Origin: Escherichia phage 1-6bf
Direction: 5' to 3' (one strand)
DNA: 64,000 bases
Sequence record: OR983334.1
The position numbers were made by a program, and so were the translations under genes. The notes under the pieces are model-generated. The model was given only the letters and a program-made list of their open reading frames with translations. It searched no databases and was not told the origin of the DNA. Shown piece after piece: positions 7,485-60,214 of the stretch. The stretch's first letter is position 1, and the number at the start of each line of letters is the position of its first letter.

Positions 7485-10400
7485 TTATTTTTTCTCTAGC
7501 AGTTCCAGTCGCTTGATAATATCCTGCAAGCAAGACACTATCGGAGAGATGAACTCACCGTAGCGAAGACCAAGCTTACCGTCCTCACCTTCAACGTACC
7601 CACCGAAGTCGGAGATTCCCAACTTGTCTACGAGATCCTTAACTTCCTGTGCGATGAATCCATAGTGCGTACGTTTACCCGGTACTTCCGTAATAACTTG
7701 GCGAGTTTTAGGAACGGTTACTTTCTCCATCAACGGTGTTTTGATTGTTCCAATGACATTACCTAGCTCATCACGCAGATCAACCTCATGGAATACTGGA
7801 CGCTCTACTTCCTTGTCAACGAACTTACGGACGTAATAGACTTCATCTCCATCAACAACACGTTCGTGGACTTCTTCAGTTGAAACAACCTTTTCTACCA
7901 CCTGACGTTCAATCTCCTCTACACCATCTTCAATCTCTTCTACAATATTCCCACCAACAATGTTTTTGTAAGAAACAGGGTTTAGGCCCAGAATAAAGTC
8001 TGTAGATAGATTGGATCCTTGAACTTCGGTTTTTGTCGTCCCATCAGAAGTCTGGATAGTAGCGTTCGATGACCATATCTGTGACCACCTATTCCCAGAC
8101 TTACCACACGAATAGATGTTATCTACATATGGATACATCGCGGCGTTAACACCTACCTCGGAGTGGAACACAACCTTACCTGCACCTTTAGACTTAATAG
8201 TTAACGACGCATCCGGTGTAGATCCACCAGAGACTGTAACGGTGGCGTTGCCATTCCTGTTGTCCAGCATGATTTGTGGGTTAGAGGTTTGGCTATAGGG
8301 TACATATAACGGCCCGTTCCCGTAGTTACCACCGAGGGTTACATCTCCATTGGCTGCGGAGATAATGCTTCTTCGCATCTGCCCGTTATCTTCCCAACCA
8401 GATCCAATGTAGAGTGGATACTGCTCATTCGCTGGGTTACTAGCAGCAGCGTGCAATGCGTAATATCCACTATTATTGGCAATGAGACTAATATTTTCCT
8501 CAAAGCCAGCATCATTGATACGATGAACCCGAAGTGCACTGTTGAGGTTGTTAACTGTACCCCAGAATTTATATTCTGTTGATGCTGAATCCCCCGGAGC
8601 AGAACTAAGGGTAACATGCTGAGGGTCTGTAAAAGCCACTACGCGGTAGTCGACACCATTAATAGTCATTGTCTGAGGTACTGATGCGTCGGGAATCACA
8701 AACGGATCACCACTAATGCGGGTTACAGTAGTGCCGGATACACTGCATACACCACTGCCGTGGTAGTAACACAAGCTGTACGAGTGGGTTGCATTTGATC
8801 CCCAAGTAACAGGTGACCCATTGATATTTTTAACAGTAAAACCATCTGCTGTTACGGATGCTACAGTATAAAGTGCATCATAGATAGCAATAGGTTTACC
8901 GATCGCTTCAGATGTAATGCTAGCACCAGACAGGATTTTTACAGCATTGCTGCCTGAGATTGTCTGACATGACCCGGATTTAGAACTTGGATATATCGCC
9001 ATTTCTGTAGGGTGAGGCCATTTAGATGCACGAACACCTAACCACCCAGAACTACCATCGGTAAACATTCTAATACCATCAGCACCGTTATATGGCACAG
9101 CCCCACCAATCTGAATTCCGGTTGACGTCACTCCGTTATCACCGAAAACAGCAGATGTGGTCATCCTCTCAGTAGTTCCTGGCTTAGCCCATTGGGAAAC
9201 TTTAGTTGTCCCATCCGACATAATGCGATTTACAATAGCACCATAGAATTTACCAGCACCAGTAAATGTCACTGGTTCTTCAAATACGAAACGGCGACCG
9301 TAACATTCTACATTACTATTGAGGAGGTATGTCCCGCTTGGAACAATGATCTCACGACTTTTAGGTAGAAGTGTGTTGGCAGAAATAAAGGAACTTGCAG
9401 CATCCGTAGTGCCGTTGTATTTATCACCAAGAAAGTCAAGAATGCTACTGAATTGTGCATTTATGTCATGCTGAGTACGAGCCGCAGCGCCAGCGAAAGG
9501 AGCCTTGACCCCAATTAGTGCATCACCTTGAGCTACGTTAGACGTATTAGAAAGCTGAGCTGTTGGTACACGACTATCCGCATTAGTATTAGCAGCAGCA
9601 GCAGCATCTTTAGCTTCGTTAATCTTCGTTTCAAGTAATGCAGTTTCAGTAGACAGTTGACCGAGAGCTACTGGTTCGTTGTTAGCTACTGCATCAGGAA
9701 TCACTGGAGACTGCGTGAAAGTAACCTTGTTAGTCATTGAGGTTATATCAGAGTTAGCCCCACTTTTAGCAGCAACAAGAGACATACGCGCTGCATCTGC
9801 TGTTGTTGCCCCAGTGCCACCCTGTCCAACCCCTAACGGTATCCAACCTGTTCCAGTGCTGCTGCCCCATGCACCGTTATCCTGGATACGCAAGCGGTTG
9901 GAACCGTTGGCTGTAAGGAAATCGCTATAACTACCACCTTGTATTACGCGGTTGACACCGAGATTCTCTCTGGCACTGACCACCGTTGTTGCCCCCGTAC
10001 CTCCATTAACAATAGGTACAGTGTCCAAAGTAGAAATAGGTCCAAGTCCTAGATTAGTTCTTGCACCAGCAGCATCTCTTGCCCCTGTACCACCTTGATT
10101 TACTTTAAGAGCAATAGGTCCTGTACCTGTTGAGGAATAACACCCCCAAGTGTCGCCATCTTTGTTTACGTATAAAAAAGCGCTACCTGTTCCATTACGT
10201 AGCTGAGTTTCACCGCTAGTTAACTGAGTAAGACGGTCAACTGAGAGATTTATACGAGCATTAGCAGCATCTTTTGCCCCTGTACCACCTTGAGCTACAG
10301 ATAGGGCAGTAGTCAACCCACGAATCTGGTTAATATCGTTGTTAACGCCAGAAGCAGCTGCGCCAGTAACTTGACTTACTGTGTAGTCTCCAGCAGCCGG

Positions 10401-19927: not shown

Positions 19928-20611
19928 TTACTTACAATCACCAACGGACAGGTTAAACATCTTACCTAGAGCAATCGTCTCACCTTCCCACGGAAGTTCT
20001 ACACCCTTCTCTTCCTCTAAAAGAATAGAGCCGTCGACCAAAAATTTTTCGTAGTCTCGCAGTGCGTCGTCTACTAGCTCACTCTTGTGAATCCACGTAA
20101 TTGTTTCTGTACCATCCTCTTCGATTCGAACATCACGATGCCATTCATCTTTGGAGGTAATGTAATCATGGAGCATTTCATATTCAGCTTCTTCAATCAT
20201 CTCAATCATTGCACGAGCGTAGTCAGGGAGATGATCATGTTTAGTAGATTCGTATTCAACTACTTCCAGAGTGGACGGTGCTGATTTAGTTTTAGAATTA
20301 GGGCGAGTAGTATGAATCAAGTCTAACATGTTTTTGTTCTCCGTAATATTTGGTTTAAGAATGCTTCCACTATATAAATCTTGTACAGCCAGTCCTGAAA
20401 CATTTCCCATAGTTTCTAAATGTTGTAAGCTACAACCAGAACGACACAGCTGTGAATTATACTCGTTAAGGTCCATCGCTTTAGTGTGGAAAGGAGAACC
20501 AGAAGGGAAGCTACCTCCATAAACACCTTCCATATTAACTGCGATTATTTTATTATTCATCTGTCTCTCCCTTGCTGTAATCTTTAAATGTTTCATATTT
20601 GTACGATGCAA
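19928..20611 (-). CDS. Hypothetical protein (227 aa)
   Basis: ORF track. Confidence 0.3.
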   Translation of the reverse strand: MHRTNMKHLKITARERQMNNKIIAVNMEGVYGGSFPSGSPFHTKAMDLNEYNSQLCRSGCSLQHLETMGNVSGLAVQDLYSGSILKPNITENKNMLDLIHTTRPNSKTKSAPSTLEVVEYESTKHDHLPDYARAMIEMIEEAEYEMLHDYITSKDEWHRDVRIEEDGTETITWIHKSELVDDALRDYEKFLVDGSILLEEEKGVELPWEGETIALGKMFNLSVGDCK

Positions 20612-20819
20612 ATGCTCTGAAGAATAGCCAACCTAAACTGCTAACATCCATCGTAACATCAAAATCTGTTTCATCATCCAAGTCAACCAGACGACCAATA
20701 CAAGTGAGTTCCATAATCTCACCATCTCCATACTTATCAGAGGATTCTTTGATGAAGGCACATTTCTCCGTTCTGAACCGTGGAATCAACTCTGATAAAA
20801 AGTCTAATACTAAATTCAT
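20553..20819 (-). CDS. Hypothetical protein (88 aa)
   Basis: ORF track. Confidence 0.25.
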   Translation of the reverse strand: MNLVLDFLSELIPRFRTEKCAFIKESSDKYGDGEIMELTCIGRLVDLDDETDFDVTMDVSSLGWLFFRAFASYKYETFKDYSKGETDE

Positions 20820-21033
20820 AATTCTTCTCCTCTGAATAAGAGTATAAAGGGCACATCATAAGACCTACCCGTAAAGGCACCCTCACATTGACACCCGTGA
20901 GCATACCTGTATTCATTTTCGTAGTCTTCTTCAGAGAAGCTACCATATTCATCTTCAGTCATAAATCCCTCTGATAAAGTTAAGACATAAAGGGGACTTC
21001 ATGTTAAGGCACCCCCATAAAGGCCATGTCACG

Positions 21034-21240
21034 TTAAGGCTTATCCACCCACGTACTGAATCTCAACTTACCACATTCCTTACACTTCCATGTTGATAGA
21101 TACAAACCATGTATTCTTTCATCCCCGTAAGCTTTACGAAGAAGATAGTAATTGTGCTTACACTTCATCCGTCTAAATACTTTAATTAGATTCATTAAGT
21201 CCTCTCTTAAGCTTAAATCCACAACATAAAGTTGGGGCAT
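21034..21240 (-). CDS. Small Cys-rich protein (68 aa)
   Basis: CKHNYY..CKECGK pairs suggest a zinc ribbon. Confidence 0.3.
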   Translation of the reverse strand: MPQLYVVDLSLREDLMNLIKVFRRMKCKHNYYLLRKAYGDERIHGLYLSTWKCKECGKLRFSTWVDKP

Positions 21241-21379
21241 ATTCTTATATATAAGAGTTTAAAATTCTGATTTGGCCGAGTGGGGCTAGCCGCTTCCCGC
21301 GCGTTTCCTAAAAAGGGGGAGTCCTCATTTAAAAAAGGGTTATTGGCAATGCCTTTACCTTCCCTTTCAACGTTCCACC

Positions 21380-21860
21380 TTTCCCCGTGCCTACTCCCCG
21401 TAGTTATTCCCCCGTGTATACTACCCAATACATTACCTACCCGTTTATTTAGTTCCCCTTTAAAGGGTGAGAGAAAGGCTAGCACTGTATAAACTAGTAC
21501 AGGCACAACCATAACAGGTCTGATAATACCGTATTGTTACCGTTCCAATGGCAGCGTTAGCGTCGCATTCCCCCCACAGTTTGAGTGTAAATAGTTTCAA
21601 TAGTAATGATTATGAGTGCAATAATGATGTATGTATTAATTAAGTGGAAAGATAGTAATTAACAGTTATTATATTCTTTTATTACTTTCTTTTTTCAGCG
21701 TACATGAGCGTAGCGAATGGTCTTTGATGTTTGAGTTATACAATTATTTAAGTGGTATATTATTACCGCACTATCTTGCATGTTTCCCCGTGGTCTGTCC
21801 TGCGGTTGTTGTATCCCCGTTTGTCCTGGTCTGTTGGTCTGTTACCCGTAGTGTTATAAA
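21380..21860. repeat. Iteron-like cluster (CCCCGT x5, ACCCGT x2, GGTCTGT x3) flanking an AT-rich block
   Basis: Direct reading: ttccccgtgcc, ctccccgtag, tcccccgtgt, ctacccgttta, tttccccgtgg, tatccccgtttg, ttacccgtag; AT-rich stretch about 21590-21720. Confidence 0.5.
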
Positions 21861-21960
21861 GTAACAATAAGAAGTAAGCTGATTCTCTGAGTATGGAAAG
21901 TTTAGTAAATTAAATTCCTTTAGTTTTCAGTAGGATGCAAGAAAGTTAGAAAATAGATGG

Positions 21961-21988
21961 TTGACAGTCTTTTCCTTTAATATATAGT
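21961..21988 (+). promoter_or_regulatory. Sigma70-type promoter for rightward early genes
   Basis: TTGACA, 16 nt spacer, TATAGT; about 40 nt upstream of the 22027 gene. Confidence 0.5.
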
Positions 21989-22026
21989 TGTCGATAGTTG
22001 GTTGAATTTATCTAAGGAGTAACGAA

Positions 22027-22524
22027 ATGGCTAAAGCAATGCAGGTAGTTAATCTGGCAAGTTATGCACTAGTTGCAGCGATTGGTGTTAGTGCACTGGT
22101 CACATCTCTTTCTGATAAGGCTATCGCTAGTCCTACTCCTACTCCTGCAACTGATGCGGCTAGTGTCTTCTCTAGTTCCATCAATAAGGGTTGGATGATT
22201 TGTAACGGTGCTGATAGTGATGGCACTTCCATCGTGTTAAAGATGAAATTTAGCAACGTTACTAATGATGGTGTTCTCTTTCAATCTAAAACGCTAGATA
22301 ATCAGCCTAACAGTGATTTGGTGCTTAAGCGTACCGATAACGATATGGATATGGTGACATTTGGCACTGTACAACGTTATGAAGACGTTAAAGCCGTTAC
22401 TAATCTTGTGAGTTATGGTCCGGTTAATGAGTCGATGATCGCCACAACTGTTTACAATAACGCTGACAACGCTGTTTATACTGTTCACGTTAATTTAGCC
22501 AACTGCATTAAGGCTAGTAAGTGA
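22027..22524 (+). CDS. Secreted early protein (165 aa)
   Basis: N-terminal signal-peptide-like MAKAMQVVNLASYALVAAIGVSALVTS; GGAGT RBS. Confidence 0.45.
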   Translation: MAKAMQVVNLASYALVAAIGVSALVTSLSDKAIASPTPTPATDAASVFSSSINKGWMICNGADSDGTSIVLKMKFSNVTNDGVLFQSKTLDNQPNSDLVLKRTDNDMDMVTFGTVQRYEDVKAVTNLVSYGPVNESMIATTVYNNADNAVYTVHVNLANCIKASK

Positions 22525-22560: not shown

Positions 22561-22812
22561 ATGGCTATTAAAGAAGTTGAATTATCTAACGACTTTTCTT
22601 GTTTTGTTGGCGATACTGCTATCATGTTTAATACGCTTGATGGTCAGCTTATCGTGCCTATTATCACTTTTTGCAAAATGGATTTTCAGTCAGCTAAAAA
22701 ATGGTTGAAATTTGCTGGCCTTGAAATTACCCGTGCTGATTTTCGTGACATCTATATCAAAGGTGATTTGTCACTGGCTAACCTGTTAAGTGAAAGATTG
22801 ATACATGACTAA
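22561..22812 (+). CDS. Hypothetical early protein
   Basis: ORF track. Confidence 0.35.
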   Translation: MAIKEVELSNDFSCFVGDTAIMFNTLDGQLIVPIITFCKMDFQSAKKWLKFAGLEITRADFRDIYIKGDLSLANLLSERLIHD

Positions 22813-23258: not shown

Positions 23259-23624
23259 ATGTGGTTTATTAAATTCGTCGTTAAAACGATTGTAGGCTTC
23301 TTCCTTGTCGTTCTCCTGTTAGGTGTCCTGCTGTCAGCTATGGGTAGCGTTAAGGCTGCAACGTTCTCCCCTGCTACGGTTGACGGTTTACAGTGCACCT
23401 ATATTGTAGAAAACTATGACACTGGTAAAAAGTCACCTAAAGTTATTATTTTACATGTAAATGATTTCGATCATGTACAATCATATGATAAAACTATTCA
23501 ACTGGTAAATGAAACCACTGGTAAGCAAATTACGGTCGATCACTTGATGCGCTCATCGTTGACGCTCTTTGATGAGTCTATGAATGAAATGGCATCCGGT
23601 AACGGTCAATGTGTAAATCCATAG
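23259..23624 (+). CDS. Membrane-anchored early protein (121 aa)
   Basis: N-terminal hydrophobic segment FIKFVVKTIVGFFLVVLLLGVLLSAMG. Confidence 0.4.
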   Translation: MWFIKFVVKTIVGFFLVVLLLGVLLSAMGSVKAATFSPATVDGLQCTYIVENYDTGKKSPKVIILHVNDFDHVQSYDKTIQLVNETTGKQITVDHLMRSSLTLFDESMNEMASGNGQCVNP

Positions 23625-24007
23625 GCTTAATCTTTCTTCTGTATTGTGCCGTAGTCATGCCTATGGTCATAATCTATCTGATTCTCTAATCCTTCCTGTA
23701 AGCCTCCTAGTGAGGCTTTTCTCTTTTATGAGGTGAGTGTATGCCTTACTCCCTTTTAGCTCGTTGTGATGCGTTTTAGGCCGCTAAATATCGCTTTACA
23801 AGCCGTTTTCTATGATGTATCGCGTGCGCCTGCTCTTTTACCTTCCTATAGTGAAAAAGTTTAAAATAATTTGCTTTACCCTATTGCAATCTCATCTGAT
23901 TAGCGTATACTTCATTTCATCGGGTACGATGTAAAACATACAAGGCAAGAAATTGCCCCGCTCTTTAAAAATCAGGTTAGAAAGTGAAAATATTCTCAAA
24001 AAGAGTA

Positions 24008-24036
24008 TTGACACCGAAAACAGCCTGATATATAGT
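24008..24036 (+). promoter_or_regulatory. Strong sigma70-type promoter P1
   Basis: TTGACA, 17 nt, TATAGT, then GAGCAT; A-rich upstream element. Confidence 0.6.
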
Positions 24037-24139
24037 GAGCATAGTCAGCGATGACTTAAAAAATCCCGCTCTTTAAAAACTTATCATCTTGCCCTTTCGC
24101 ATAGATTCACGCGAGATAAGGGAAAGGAATTAAAAGAAG

Positions 24140-24274
24140 ATGATAAAAAGAGTTGCAAACGTGGTTAAAGTAGTCCATACTAACCACAAGTTAGCAGATA
24201 CACCGCTAACAAGTTCCCAAATCAACGTATCGCGGGAAAAGTGGCACATAGTGCAGCGAGTAGTTCGGGTGTAG
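24140..24274 (+). CDS. Candidate small basic ORF (44 aa) in leader region
   Basis: ATG preceded by GGAAAGGA; below the ORF-track size cutoff; weak support. Confidence 0.2.
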   Translation: MIKRVANVVKVVHTNHKLADTPLTSSQINVSREKWHIVQRVVRV

Positions 24275-24455
24275 GCGGCCCGTTAATGAATAAGTAAGCC
24301 TTAAATGTGACAGTGATTAGCAGACACTCTAAAAGGCTAACGCTCTTTAACAATATGAATCATAAGTTAAGCATCACCGCTTAATCTTCAATCAAATAAA
24401 GCTGATTGATATATCCTCCCAATAGCGGGAACGACGAAAAAAGATTAAAAAGCGG

Positions 24456-24484
24456 TTGACAGCGAAAACAACATGATTCATAAT
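24456..24484 (+). promoter_or_regulatory. Strong sigma70-type promoter P2 (duplicate of P1)
   Basis: TTGACA, 17 nt, CATAAT, then GAGCAT; spacer nearly identical to P1. Confidence 0.6.
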
Positions 24485-25404
24485 GAGCATCACTTAAGCA
24501 AATCACCGCTTAAGGAAAGCGTAACAACGGCTAACAGTTGCATAGTGTGAGAAAGCACACTGATAGATTTACCGCTCTTTAATAATTTAAACATTCTCCT
24601 ATATCGGTTGAATATGCTGGATGATAATAACCATCGGAAAGCATACCAGATAAAACGGCGTAAAACTCCCTAAATTATCAGGGTAAACAGTTTTACATTC
24701 CCTTACTGGAAACGTCACCACTGGTAAACGGATTCATTGAGTGCACGCAAAGGCTTAAGCTAATCGCCCACGGTTAAGGGTAGCGGCGGTCATCGCTAAC
24801 AAGGCGCTACAGTGAAAGAAGTTAATCAGGGTAGGCAATCCCGACGAATTAACGCCCAATTGAGGGCGGCGGGGAGTGGTTAAAAGTGGCAAATTGCTAT
24901 TTAACAATAAGGTTTAGTGTGAACGTTTACGATGTGAACGGCTTGAGATTCATCTTATGATGAAAGTACATAGTCGGGTAATGTAGTAAACTCGCTGAAA
25001 GATATAAAACGTCGGAATATTAGGCGGTTAGTGACTCTTTCGCAATAGTATCCCGTAGTGGGCGATGACTAGCGATAGAGAGCTGATATAAAAGGATAGG
25101 CGAGAGCGAAAGCAAAGTGGACGATATTGCCGACGGTTACAATAATGTAACTAATTAGAGTCGGACACACAGCCTTATTGTGATGATTGATCATCGCTAT
25201 CAGGTCGGCTTCGTTTATAGCGACTAATTAAAGATACCAGATGAAACATCACGGATAAGGGGGCGGCAAGGTTAACTCCTGATAAGACCGCCCCGCTTAC
25301 CTATAACTACTTAACAACGAGTGGTTATAGTTAAGTTAATAGTGACTTAAACAAGCTCATAGAGAGCGGGGCAATAGCGCCCTTACAATTGAAAGGTGAA
25401 TATC

Positions 25405-26304
25405 ATGGCTAAAATCTTTACTCTGGTTAACGAATCCGGTTTTAATGCTCTGGCTAACAACATTCGCAGTAATAACGCGGCGATCAAACAAGATGTTTCT
25501 AACTTCCTGTTAGGGCACTTACAGCACTTCCGCAGTAATGGTAAGAAGCTGGACGTATTGCAGGCGGCGGTTGACTTCTTGTTAACTGAACGTTTCCGTG
25601 ATATGGATGTTATTGCCACTGCAATTACTTTCTTAACTCCTATCAAGTTTAACACTGATGCGGCAAACGGTCGTAAAAAGTGGATTAATCTGGAAGGTGA
25701 AGCGAAAGCGAAAGAAGATGCGAAAGAAGCGCAAATTAAGGCCAAAATGGAACAAAATCGAGCTCGCTGGTCAAATGCTTTCGAAAATTTTGCCCTCGGT
25801 CGTGAAATTGAAGTCGATAACCCTAACTTTTACAAGGGTTGCAATGACAACGTAGCGGCACACCTGCAAATACCTGCGAAAAACAAGGAAGATTTTAATC
25901 AGGATATTTACGCTTTAGTTGAACGCTTGAATGCAATCCGTATCGAAGCCAAATTGCTGGCTGATGAGCGCAACGGCGCTACTAGCGATAATACTATCGC
26001 CTTAAGTGAAGAAGTCGGCAAGGTTAAAAAGTCTTTCGACTCACTCATCAAGAAAGTAACGGCCTCAACGGTAGCGATCTCCGATGACTATCTGATGAAC
26101 GCATCAAGCAAGGAATTAGAATCCCTCGATTCATACGCTGATGAAATGGAAAAGACTATCGCAGCTATGCAGGAGAAGTTAGAAGGACTGCGCAGTCGTA
26201 TCTCTTCAACGGTTGCTACCCGTACCGAACAAGCGGCGAAAGCAGAAGAGGAAGAAGTATTGCGTAAAGCGGCTGAAATTATGGCGGCACGCCAAGCGGC
26301 ATAA
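25405..26304 (+). CDS. Hypothetical early protein (about 300 aa, helical)
   Basis: ATG at 25405 with AGGTG RBS; ORF track frame. Confidence 0.45.
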   Translation: MAKIFTLVNESGFNALANNIRSNNAAIKQDVSNFLLGHLQHFRSNGKKLDVLQAAVDFLLTERFRDMDVIATAITFLTPIKFNTDAANGRKKWINLEGEAKAKEDAKEAQIKAKMEQNRARWSNAFENFALGREIEVDNPNFYKGCNDNVAAHLQIPAKNKEDFNQDIYALVERLNAIRIEAKLLADERNGATSDNTIALSEEVGKVKKSFDSLIKKVTASTVAISDDYLMNASSKELESLDSYADEMEKTIAAMQEKLEGLRSRISSTVATRTEQAAKAEEEEVLRKAAEIMAARQAA

Positions 26305-26338
26305 GTAAGACAATTCAAATAAGCATAAGGCGCTATCT

Positions 26339-26372
26339 TAACGGGTAGCGCCTTTTCTTTTATCAGTGCATT
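26339..26372 (+). terminator. Rho-independent terminator
   Basis: GGCGCTA..TAGCGCC hairpin followed by TTTTCTTTT. Confidence 0.5.
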
Positions 26373-32174: not shown

Positions 32175-32277
32175 GAGCTTCTAGCGAGGATGTATCTTCC
32201 CCGCCTTCTAAGCGGTCGTTAAAGAAGTAATTGGAGTATGCAGGTTCGAACCCTGTCATCCTCGCTAGAGGCTCTTG
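32172..32277 (+). ncRNA. tRNA-like structured element (about 20 bp outer stem, internal UCU-loop hairpin and T-arm-like hairpin)
   Basis: Outer stem AGAGCTTCTAGCGAGGATG / CATCCTCGCTAGAGGCTCT; inner CCGC-CTTCTAA-GCGG and GCAGG-TTCGAAC-CCTGT; no canonical D-arm. Confidence 0.3.
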
Positions 32278-57915: not shown

Positions 57916-59616
57916 GTGAGCAACCCGGACGCTCTTCCATTTTTGACAGAGATGACTGTCGCTGATATAATCTCTAAGCAAGCAAAGCACGGAGTGAGTT
58001 TCAACCGAAGAAATGCTCGGTGGTATGTTCACCTCCTTAAAGAGATTATTGTTAATATTGACAGAGAGTTGATTCCTCTCTTACCTAAGATGAGATTAGA
58101 TGGCTCTACTTATATGAAGCCGTTTAAGAAGTCTGGAGCTTTGCAGAAGTGGCCTCAAGCCTATTGTGATAGAGTTGGGCTGAAGAGAGAAGACATTGGT
58201 GGAGCTTTCACCTGTGTCGAATACGTAGACTTTGACCCATCGAAAGATGCACGAGTTAAAGAAGCTCTTATGGATGAGGGCTTTCTTCCTCCAGAGTTTA
58301 ACGTATCTAAGAAGCCTTGGAATACTTTCGAAATTAAGAAAGATATGAGAAAGTATGGAACATACCAAGCATGGTATACTGCTTGGATGCGAGGAAATGC
58401 TAAGCAGAAGCAGACAGCCGAGATGGTTGACGCTGATATTAAGAAGTTCTTAGAAAAGCATTTTAGGTTTAAAACTAAGAACTATATGAAGGCTTACGTG
58501 TTTGGTTTGGGATTAAACCCGAATCGACGTAATCCTGTAACGTTTGATGAGATTAAGAAAGCACTAGCCACTTCAAACAAGTGGCCTACAGCTCCTACAA
58601 ACCTCGAGGAGACTCTTGAAGAAGGGTTAGGGGGTGAGCTAGGGAGTGTCGGAAGTTTGCTTAAGAGACGCGTTGTAGCGGCTCACAGGCTAGGTCTTAT
58701 CAGTGGACTCATAGCAAAGGAACGCGAAGATGGTAAACTTTCGGCAGAAGCTAACAGCTGCGCTACGCCGACTTTTCGATTCAAACATCGTATCGTGGTT
58801 AATATTCCCTCCCGTGGTTTGTTTGGTCACGAGTGTCGCAGTTTGTTTGAGTCTGACTATAACTCAGACAGTGATCATTCTCGTCCTTTCGTTATTACTA
58901 ACGTTGTTCCTGATGGTTGTTATATACGAAAAGGTACTAACGTAATTTATGAGAAAGGTAAACCGGGGAAGAAAGACAAACCTGTAGGTGCTTACAAATA
59001 TTACATACCCGCTGGTAAAGAAGTATTCTTAGGGTATGATGGTTCTGGGCTTGAACTTCGTATGCTCGCTCACTACCTCATTAAAGAGTGTAGGGATATG
59101 CTTGCTGAGGCAATTGAAGAGAACAACCCAGCTAAGAAAGCTCTGGCAGAACGTGGTTTAGCTTCTGCTATTATGTATCGTGATATTCTCCTTGAAGGTG
59201 ATATCCACTCCCACAACCAGAAACTTGCTGGTCTTCCTACTCGTGACAACGCTAAAACGTTTATCTATGCATTCAACTACGGTGCTGGCGATGCTAAGCT
59301 TGGTTCAATTGTAGGTGGTGGGGCTGACGAAGGTTCAGTGATGCGAGCACGTTTCTTGGCAGAGAACCCATGTATTGCAATCCTCATTGATCGTATGACA
59401 GAAAAGGCTGCTCAAGGGTACTTGATTGGTGTTGATGGTCGTAAGATTACAATGAGACGAGATGCCACTGGTAAAGTTATGGTTCATAAAGCCCTTAACA
59501 CACTCCTGCAATGTGCTGGTGCTGTTGTTATGAAATACGCTATGATGTTCCTTAACAAGTGGATTGAGAGGGATGGGGTTCGTTGTGCTAAGGTAATTGA
59601 TATGCATAAACTTCAT
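57916..59616 (+). CDS. Family A DNA polymerase, polymerase domain (exon 1; 3' boundary uncertain, ORF track frame runs to 59637)
   Basis: GTG start with AAGGAG RBS; motif A LGYDGSGLELRMLAHY, motif B RDNAKTFIYAFNYGAGDAKLG, GVDGRKI..ALNTLLQCAGA; aligns by eye with T7 DNA polymerase. Confidence 0.7.
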
Positions 59617-60214
59617 TGTGCATGTAAAAGTTGGTGAACTCGGTGAAACCCGACCATTAAGTTGAGGGCAATACCGAGCTAAGCTATTAGGAGGTGATAT
59701 GGCTAAGAAAGATCTAGTGCTAGAAACAACTAGCACAGGATGTATCATCCCTATCTCACACAAACTAAATAAAGATGGTTACTTTCGAAAAATGATAAAT
59801 GGCAAATGGGTCATGTATCACAGATACGTCATGGAAGAGAAATTTGGAAACATCCCTGACGGTTATGAAGTTAACCATAAATGCAAGAATAGAGCTTGTT
59901 GCAATACTGACCATCTAGAAATCTTAGAAGGTAGTGCACATGCTATCGAGTCAAACACTGGCAGAAACAGAGAAAGACAGAATGCTGCTAAAGAGTTCTG
60001 GCTTAACAATGAATGCACTGGTGTTGCTCTTGCAGAAAGGTTTGGTGTGAGCTTTGGAATCGCTTGTAGATGGATTCGAAAGTGGAAAGTGTAGAGACTA
60101 TCCTGCGGGAGTAGGGGGTTAACAGGGAAACCCTCGAAGCGCCAACAACAGCAAATTAGCTATGCTGTTATGATATAGTCCGATACCCGAAGTAATTTGG
60201 GAATAACATAAATG
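59617..60214 (+). mobile_element. Candidate group I intron carrying an HNH endonuclease ORF, interrupting the polymerase before motif C
   Basis: Exon 1 frame stops before motif C; downstream reading DEGQ..GLNWMHTH supplies motif C and the conserved C-terminus right after a G at 60214; HNH ORF lies between. Confidence 0.45.
59699..60094 (+). CDS. HNH homing endonuclease (intron-encoded candidate)
   Basis: GYEVNHKCKNRACCNTDHLEI HNH motif; AGGAGG RBS. Confidence 0.7.
   Translation: MAKKDLVLETTSTGCIIPISHKLNKDGYFRKMINGKWVMYHRYVMEEKFGNIPDGYEVNHKCKNRACCNTDHLEILEGSAHAIESNTGRNRERQNAAKEFWLNNECTGVALAERFGVSFGIACRWIRKWKV

Follow-up and report, generated by a model that had tools for sequence, protein, structure and literature searches.

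Escherichia phage 1-6bf is a phiEco32-like podophage (Kuravirus) and a coliphage, and its DNA was analysed here over a stretch of 64,000 nucleotides (nt) from sequence record OR983334.1, which is referred to as the window. At positions 23625-25395 the window contains a region free of long open reading frames (ORFs), which is the spacer separating phiEco32 genes 125 and 124, and nearly all deposited genomes carry no annotation there. This spacer is probably an early phage transcription unit that is built like a bacterial rRNA operon and makes a large structured RNA. An earlier note on this DNA had listed non-coding RNA and an early leader among the possible roles of the region, and both options are strongly supported by a conserved and covarying RNA that lies downstream of the second of two strong promoters and leads into the gene gp124.

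Conservation of the RNA is at least comparable to that of the adjoining gene. In 22 of 27 comparisons the leader shows a nucleotide identity no lower than that of the gp124 coding sequence, with values of 91 versus 76% in SU7, 89.5 versus 74.5% in TH43 and 87.7 versus 73.8% in Bas88. Furthermore, the last promoter (at about -950), the last boxA element (about -830) and a site at about -509 keep near-constant distances to the gp124 ATG in every phage. A consensus structure derived from an alignment of 24 sequences contains 230 pairs arranged in 42 helices, and 80 of these pairs carry changes on both sides. Standard pairs are formed in 99.2% of the cells, compared to 93.8% in 500 shuffles and 34-49% when the partners are slid by 1-3 columns. 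The 80 doubly-changed pairs compare with 35.4 ± 3.3 in the shuffles, none of which reaches 80 (0/500), and with 10-15 upon sliding, and the covariation score is 0.250 as opposed to 0.139 in the shuffled and 0.04-0.07 in the slid alignments. As a control for circularity, the minimum-free-energy fold of the window sequence by itself was scored as well, which yielded 95.7% paired cells and 82 doubly-changed pairs, versus 39.0 ± 3.7 in the shuffles (reached in 0/500) and 10-18 with slid partners. Long-range pairs with invariant columns receive no covariation support. The + strand folds with -279 kcal/mol (z = -4.9) and its complement with -241 kcal/mol (z = -3.7), and the consensus pairs include 670 G·U cells versus 18 A·C cells, a pattern indicating that selection acts on the pairing of the + strand RNA. 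In addition, the RNA is purine-rich and C-poor (18.6% C), and this composition fits the avoidance of Rho.

The 5' part of the RNA consists of a 5' hairpin and two small hairpins followed by the last boxA (boxA-4), after which come domain I, a conserved hairpin, domain II and a 3' hairpin array (Table 1; domain coordinates are window positions mapped from the consensus helices). The closing helix of domain I (24586-24598/24872-24883) contains 3 doubly-changed pairs, and the closing helices of domain II show compensatory changes as well, a C-to-T change in TH34 being balanced by a G-to-A change. Within the 3' array, the hairpin GGGGGCGG...CCGCCCC at 25260-25294 has 5 covarying pairs. In phage LAMP a part of domain II (about 25000-25050; alignment columns ~540-625) is replaced by unrelated sequence of another length, and SU7, EK010, TH43, Bas88, EP335 and Bas89 have a shortened, different hairpin at alignment columns 485-506. 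The peripheral helices therefore appear to be exchangeable, with a fixed core.

The second line of evidence is a short motif that marks the transcripts of this spacer. In gamma-proteobacteria the boxA consensus is GYTCTTTAANA, in which position 4 is critical (PMC5725501), and NusB-NusE, by binding boxA RNA, starts the assembly of the rrn antitermination complex, by which untranslated RNA is protected from Rho (PMC7665894). The earlier note had pointed to a recurring motif, and GCTCTTTAA is indeed found exactly four times in the window (23960, 24068, 24342 and 24574), always on the + strand and within 620 nt, as opposed to 0.89 occurrences expected in the whole window. The consensus GYTCTTTAANA itself has four matches in the window versus 0.45 expected, and four were reached in none of 100 shuffles. 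Judged by its letters, CGCTCTTTAA(A/C/T)AA is boxA: it perfectly matches the host-type consensus, the site at which NusB/NusE is loaded in rRNA operons. The spacers of 29 related phage sequences contain 117 consensus boxA sites (58 kb in total, + strand), and the flanks contain none in 281 kb on both strands. Each phage has 4-6 copies, the sole variable base of the phage sites is the N of the consensus, and boxA-4 is invariant in 24 phages except at this position. The helices predicted to pair boxA-4 (consensus helices 1 and 4, single-sequence helices 5 and 6) are invariant or contain broken cells and exhibit no covariation, which suggests that they are not under selection and that boxA-4 is not constrained to pair. 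A boxA-like site at 24896 (GCTATTTAACAATAAGG / GCTATTTAACA), which falls in the 5' strand of domain II, was rejected as a fifth boxA because its C4 is changed to A and the site forms one strand of a covarying long-range helix.

The promoters of the spacer complete the resemblance to an rRNA operon. Three sigma70 promoters have been described here in the SU10 genome paper, as in phiEco32, together with a terminator after the preceding small operon (PMC4281155), and the promoters are therefore known early promoters. The two duplicated promoters of the earlier note could be recovered as TTGACA-N17-TATAGT (P1) and TTGACA-N17-CATAAT (P2), each matching the consensus at 11 of 12 positions and preceded by A-tracts, and they share a 35-nt block of 83% identity that ends in the GAGCAT of that note. 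Only four promoters in the 64-kb window reach at least 11/12, all of them on the + strand. P1 counterparts in the relatives score 10-12/12, and the position of P2 relative to the gp124 ATG, about -950, is fixed throughout the relatives. A weaker promoter (P0) precedes boxA-1 in this phage, and the first boxA of phiEco32, EK010 and EP335 is preceded by a stronger promoter, TTGACA-16-TAATAT; similarly, SU7, EK010, TH34, PAS59, TH43 and Bas88 carry TTGACA-16-TAGAAT 24 nt upstream of boxA-3. Every spacer promoter of at least 10/12 has a boxA downstream, mostly 15-48 or 82-96 nt past the -10 element. An internal control is provided by the 11/12 promoter at 21961-21988 (+), which lacks a boxA and feeds a translated operon, with a gene start about 30 nt further on (22027, the first early gene). 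As a separate observation, a perfect 12/12 promoter, TTGACA-17-TATAAT, is located at 57943-57971 (+), at the start of ORF 57916-59637, and is not followed by a boxA.

Upstream of the conserved RNA, the 5' part of the spacer differs among the relatives, which contain 2-4 promoter/boxA modules and inserts of about 130 to 460 nt. In this phage the segment 24043-24455 folds better than its shuffles (z = -4.0); a search for paralogy between this segment and the main RNA found only short shared motifs, none of them individually significant. An exact 12-nt repeat, ATCACCGCTTAA, occurs at 24373 and 24502. The two CACCGCTTAA sites, which the earlier note had taken for variants of the boxA motif, turned out to be something else, namely the loop together with the 3' arm in a hairpin that occurs twice, of the form (C)UUAAGC-loop-GCUUAA(G). 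In TH34 and PAS59 the 5'-terminal hairpin of the P2 transcript is replaced by a different perfect hairpin, CACUAG-GCAA-CUAGUG, with a GCAA loop. Besides boxA and this hairpin, no repeat families were found in the region.

The absence of long ORFs, as claimed in the earlier note, was confirmed: between 23625 and 25395 neither strand contains an ORF of at least 60 amino acids (aa), the longest one measuring 50 aa on the minus strand, and the + strand of 24551-25395 has no ORF of at least 25 aa. Conserved small protein genes were rejected as candidates, as the ORFs of the spacer are not kept in frame, start or length among the relatives, and the substitutions are distributed over the three codon phases as 114/132/142, that is, with no codon periodicity. 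The exception is a conserved small ORF of the SU7 subgroup only (SU7 gp104, positions 1166-1366 of sequence L003; also in TH34, PAS59, TH43 and Bas88), which has 79 codons counted from a TTG (66 aa as annotated), lies upstream of the promoter/boxA modules and is absent from the window.

At the level of the whole locus, the sequence of positions 23400-25600 is shared at 100% identity with Escherichia phage 1-6af, and about 96 further records of Kuravirus, Suseptimavirus and Nieuwekanaalvirus match it at 75-96%. The unit runs in the order terminator, promoter/boxA modules, structured RNA, gp124 and terminator, and the SU7 and 4E8 records annotate terminators at both boundaries, before the spacer and after gp124. 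Pfam, PHROGs and PDB sequence searches with gp124 were uninformative, and the protein represents a lineage-specific family; a single-sequence AlphaFold model predicts it to be all-helical, with a predicted local distance difference test (pLDDT) score of 53, a confidence too low for use.

Table 1. Features of the spacer and its boundaries in window coordinates. Transcription starts and RNA ends are predictions.
Feature	Position	Strand	Remarks
Intrinsic terminator	23700..23728	+	Upstream boundary of the unit, at the end of the first early operon; stem AAGCCTC/GAGGCTT and T-run
P0	23884..23911	+	Weak sigma70-like, TTGCAA-16-TATACT, 9/12; predicted start ~41 nt before boxA-1
boxA-1	23960..23970	+	GCTCTTTAAAA; perfect consensus match, conserved in relatives
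P1	24008..24036	+	TTGACA-17-TATAGT, 11/12; UP-like A-tract upstream; predicted start ~24043
boxA-2	24068..24078	+	GCTCTTTAAAA; ~25 nt past the P1 start
Long hairpin	24081..24146	+	Directly after boxA-2, in the variable segment; 10-bp perfect outer stem
boxA-3	24342..24352	+	GCTCTTTAACA; this phage lacks an intact promoter for it
Hairpin UUAAGC-AUCACC-GCUUAA	24367..24384	+	First CACCGCTTAA site of the earlier note
UP-element-like A-tract before P2	24433..24455	+	GACGAAAAAAGATTAAAAAGCGG; compared with the upstream regions of rrnH P1 and P2
P2	24456..24484	+	TTGACA-17-CATAAT, 11/12; predicted start ~24491
Large structured RNA	24491..25404	+	~915 nt, leader of gp124
5'-terminal hairpin of the P2 transcript	24493..24514	+	CUUAAGC-AAAUCACC-GCUUAAG; second 'variant' of the earlier note
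boxA-4	24574..24584	+	GCTCTTTAATA; ~84 nt past the P2 start
Domain I	24586..24883	+	Helices 5-18; multi-branched, ~300 nt
Hairpin between the domains	24884..24902	+	Helix 19; conserved
Domain II	24904..25181	+	Helices 20-34; long-range closing helices 24904-24913/25172-25181 and 24917-24921/25166-25170
3' hairpin array	25182..25383	+	Helices 35-42
Ribosome-binding site (RBS) AGGTGA and gp124 ATG	25394..25407	+	Annotated starts in relatives
gp124 homolog	25405..26304	+	299 aa; sole protein gene of the unit
Intrinsic terminator	26327..26363	+	3' of gp124, downstream boundary of the unit; kept in 23/24 relatives

A close parallel is the leader of the E. coli rrn operons, which likewise has tandem strong sigma70 promoters, A/T-rich upstream regions and a boxA tens of nt from the start. 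In rrnH, P1 and P2 are 110 bp apart and boxA lies about 35 nt past the P2 start, and the phage follows the same layout. Moreover, 16 consecutive nt (GCTCTTTAACAATTTA) are common to rrnH and the last phage boxA in those phages that have C at the N position. Beyond the leader, both units encode a long untranslated, purine-rich RNA with long-range helices that close large domains, and both end in an intrinsic terminator. The two also differ in several respects. The boxC of rrnH (...CAATCTGTGTGGGCAC) is situated 20 nt past its boxA, whereas the phage has neither a boxC nor a recognisable boxB at the rrn position; the phage discriminator is GAGCAT, as opposed to GC-rich in rrn; and the phage has one boxA per promoter and a co-transcribed gp124, whereas rrn has one boxA after P2. 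The product is also unrelated to rRNA, with no match to the small- or large-subunit rRNA models of Rfam.

Among phages, T7 provides an architectural analogue. Close to the end of the T7 genome that is first to enter the cell, promoters A1, A2 and A3 (498, 626 and 750) are followed by a perfect boxA (CGCTCTTTAACAA, 812-824) and by the start of gene 0.3 at 925. Both phages are virulent coliphages with tandem strong host-type early promoters and a boxA in an untranslated leader, after which come a hairpin and the first gene, so that the spacer can be likened to a T7-type early promoter cluster by analogy of layout, with no sequence homology. However, in T7, where the cluster belongs to the first early unit, the three promoters share one boxA and the leader between A3 and gene 0.3 measures only about 175 nt, whereas the phage studied here has a leader of about 915 nt with about 230 conserved pairs in its second early unit, which is bracketed by terminators.

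The nut sites of lambda show a related use of boxA and host Nus factors by a phage, and the order of boxA-3 and a hairpin 14 nt further on is nut-like. The lambda boxA is a weakened variant (CGCTCTTA) and requires N on a GNRA-like boxB loop. In contrast, the phage boxA is the full host consensus, and the loop of the hairpin, AUCACC, is unlike boxB. No lambda-type boxB with a GAAAA-type loop was found, the hairpins adjacent to boxA having the loops AUCACC and AGAAAG in different stems. We know of no N-like protein in this phage group, and no N-like gene is annotated in any relative, as far as an annotation search can tell. Boxes of the same consensus also protect host non-coding transcripts, namely CRISPR arrays and the suhB leader studied by the Wade laboratory, where they open a long untranslated and otherwise Rho-sensitive RNA. 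The literature searched contained no description of a virulent phage that drives its own structured RNA by boxA. For this phage group in particular, no prior account of an rrn-type boxA at these promoters, of Nus factors or of an RNA product was found, the primary phiEco32 papers lying outside the literature covered.

Large structured RNAs of comparable complexity have been found elsewhere: GOLLD, ROOL and OLE are multi-domain RNAs of about 600-900 nt with many covarying helices, and GOLLD and ROOL are phage-associated (PMC12286853). The phage RNA resembles them in size and complexity, but it does not match their covariance models, and it differs in its host (Enterobacteria) and its context, an early leader with boxA. 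A covariance search for known phage RNAs, as proposed in the earlier note, identified none, since no Rfam 15 family matched positions 23600-25450 at the gathering threshold. The families covered included GOLLD, ROOL, OLE, HEARO, group I/II introns, RNase P, tmRNA, 6S, phi29 pRNA and ribosomal protein leaders, among others. At E values up to 10 only short matches of 13-21 bits appeared, to eukaryotic snoRNA/U7 and unrelated bacterial sRNA models, far under the cut-offs, and ARAGORN found no tRNA or tmRNA. By the Rfam test the RNA of about 915 nt is a new family, with promoters that were already known.

Searches beyond Rfam point to the same phage lineage. A host or plasmid origin was rejected, as no similarity was found in 5,426 E. 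coli genomes or in PLSDB plasmids, and motif matches in GTDB were dismissed as chance matches in GC-rich metagenome-assembled genomes. Scans of IMG/VR and metagenomes returned only Kuravirus-like contigs, seven of them from metagenomes, and three unrelated AT-rich contigs. These three contigs (L034-L036; JGI contigs Ga0102958 and Ga0316197) are mutually related and have an exact 20-mer, TTGCTATTTAACAATAAGGT, beside a terminator-like hairpin and are otherwise unrelated; given the size of the database, the 20-mer was judged to be a chance match. Salmonella phage 7-11 (NC_015938), a distant relative of the C3 morphotype, has an ORF-free stretch of about 1,050 nt on the minus strand (8865-9917), between the right genome end, which contains validated early promoters, and the first early gene, gp151. 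The leader of 7-11 contains no consensus boxA, no homology could be detected with either the Kuravirus RNA or gp124, and only 3-4 distinct relatives of it are available.

Taken together, the unit may work as follows. Host RNA polymerase would start at the spacer promoters in the first minutes of infection, and the nascent boxA would recruit host NusB-NusE(S10), which together with NusA, NusG and SuhB would form an rrn-type antitermination complex. This complex would make the polymerase resistant to Rho on the long untranslated RNA and raise its elongation rate. The rrn complex is known to tether the boxA end to the polymerase and to provide an RNA-chaperone ring that favours the formation of long-range helices (PMC8632103). 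A 5' end tethered in this way would promote the long-range helices of the phage RNA, leading to complete synthesis, correct folding and read-through into gp124. Later in infection gp79 shuts off sigma70 promoters, including those of the rrnB P1 type, and the RNA would therefore be made only early. The folded RNA itself is taken to be what functions, because its conservation does not fall below that of the adjacent gene and it evolves through compensatory changes. Its role could be that of a stable non-coding RNA or of a ribonucleoprotein component in early host takeover, possibly with gp124, and not that of a passive spacer. A more specific proposal, which we put forward tentatively, is that phages of the Kuravirus group encode a new class of multi-domain trans-acting non-coding RNA of about 0.9 kb, made early by hijacked rRNA-synthesis machinery. 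Such an RNA might form a ribonucleoprotein with gp124, imitate rRNA as a decoy for host factors of RNA binding or ribosome assembly, or self-assemble like ROOL and GOLLD.

Several observations weigh against an rRNA-operon-like unit that makes a separate RNA. All 24 aligned sequences belong to one phage lineage with 74-97% identity, and some of the double changes are therefore inherited events that have been counted repeatedly. In this phage, the promoter directly upstream is weak for boxA-1 and absent for boxA-3, and no sequence comparable to the GU-rich boxC (UGUGUGGG) occurs at any of the four phage boxA sites. NusB/NusE binding and resistance to Rho are deduced purely from identity with the consensus, and the starts, the ends, the processing and the abundance of the RNA are all predicted. 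Furthermore, a purine-rich, C-poor and highly structured RNA may be a poor Rho substrate even without boxA. Finally, no intrinsic terminator is present between the RNA and gp124, and the RNA may therefore never exist as a separate molecule.

This last point also favours an explanation in cis, according to which the RNA is a long 5' leader of the gp124 mRNA that governs stability, processing by RNase III or RNase E, or translation, with boxA merely sustaining the polymerase. The lack of a terminator, the RBS directly after the last hairpin and the presence of a single gene between two terminators are all in line with such a leader, and so is the 5'-terminal hairpin, a classic mRNA stabiliser that is conserved in structure. 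T7 also has promoters, a boxA and a hairpin before gene 0.3, and the hairpins of its early mRNAs act in this manner. Nevertheless, an exclusively cis-acting function seems rather unlikely, as elements known to act in stability or processing manage with far less than about 900 nt in two multi-branched domains with long-range closure, the supposed target gene is less conserved than the leader, and the RBS is not sequestered by any covarying helix. The multiplicity of boxA can be read in another way, as very strong promoters of the rrn kind and transcripts with as many as four boxA copies could form a decoy or sink that draws host RNA polymerase, as the earlier note had suggested, and titrates NusB, NusE and SuhB from rrn. 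Promoters that are rrn-like, carry UP-like A-tracts and are among the four best matches in 64 kb would suit this role, and it can coexist with an rRNA-operon-like unit, in which case it would contribute to host shut-off. As the purpose of the region it is improbable, however: such a role would require neither covarying structure over 900 nt nor a leader of fixed length, one boxA per promoter is what promoter-by-promoter antitermination predicts, and gp79 already shuts off sigma70 transcription.

Two further explanations place the function in the DNA. ColE1 RNA II and the R-loop origins of T4 prime replication via an RNA-DNA hybrid, and the structured, G-rich transcript of the spacer could likewise form a persistent priming hybrid at a transcription-activated replication origin. 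Downstream of the strong promoters comes a long untranslated region with a GC skew up to +0.31 and G-rich runs such as GGGCGGCGGGGAG, and the literature covered gives no defined replication origin for this phage group. We regard such an origin as very improbable, given that selection on + strand RNA pairing extends along the whole length (the excess of G·U over A·C cells described above), that the region has no AT-rich unwinding element, iterons or other origin features, and that boxA plays no role in known R-loop origins. The earlier note had also considered operator sites, and CGCTCTTTAA could in principle be a DNA operator for a phage or host regulator such as Fis in a regulatory region, possibly with unannotated small proteins. 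Some copies do lie 47-48 bp upstream of a -35 element (e.g., 23960 before P1), which is a position for activator binding. We consider this reading extremely improbable, since the motif is an exact 11-nt consensus at the RNA level, perfectly matching the host boxA and present on one strand only (117 to 0) with the consensus N as its variable base, and it resides within the transcript downstream of promoters, as in E. coli rrnH and T7; the small ORFs, in turn, are not conserved and lack codon periodicity.

Some neighbouring features of the window deserve comment. The spacer was rejected as a site of genome termini or packaging, because the physical ends map about 3.3 kb upstream, near 20.7 kb of the window, by homology to phiEco32 coordinates, and the spacer is therefore not the terminal repeat. 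These ends, with 193-bp terminal repeats by the same homology, fall inside 20611-22027, an ORF-poor divergent stretch of 1.4 kb between minus-strand structural and plus-strand early genes, so that the window presents the virion DNA in circularly permuted form. The ORF at 23259-23624 (+), located in the first early operon, encodes 121 aa with a hydrophobic N-terminus and is called 'terminase' in many GenBank/RefSeq records via PHROG 13168. This label and the 'polymerase' label of an 83-aa product (22561-22812) look like propagated misannotations. At 32186-32264 (+), an Rfam tRNA match barely exceeds the threshold (29.7 bits, cut-off 29) and ARAGORN finds no tRNA in the window, so this could be a degenerate or unusual tRNA-like element.

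To conclude, few products of microbial genomes are understood as poorly as large ornate RNAs such as GOLLD, ROOL and OLE, in part because the organisms that carry them are hard to manipulate. A comparably large and well-supported structured RNA is now available in a tractable family of virulent E. coli phages, which serves as a model of transcription control (gp36, gp79) and is widespread in phage therapy collections. For annotation, about 100 deposited genomes leave about 1.8 kb blank or filled with spurious small ORFs, which can now be corrected. If the proposed trans-acting class is real, it would be the first such large structured RNA in a genetically tractable virulent E. coli phage. More broadly, the rRNA-operon-like organization suggests that virulent phages may use host rRNA antitermination directly, without an N-like protein, for untranslated RNA. 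If this is true, boxA biology would extend past rRNA, lambdoid phages and CRISPR arrays, and the long-noticed boxA of T7 would be explained.

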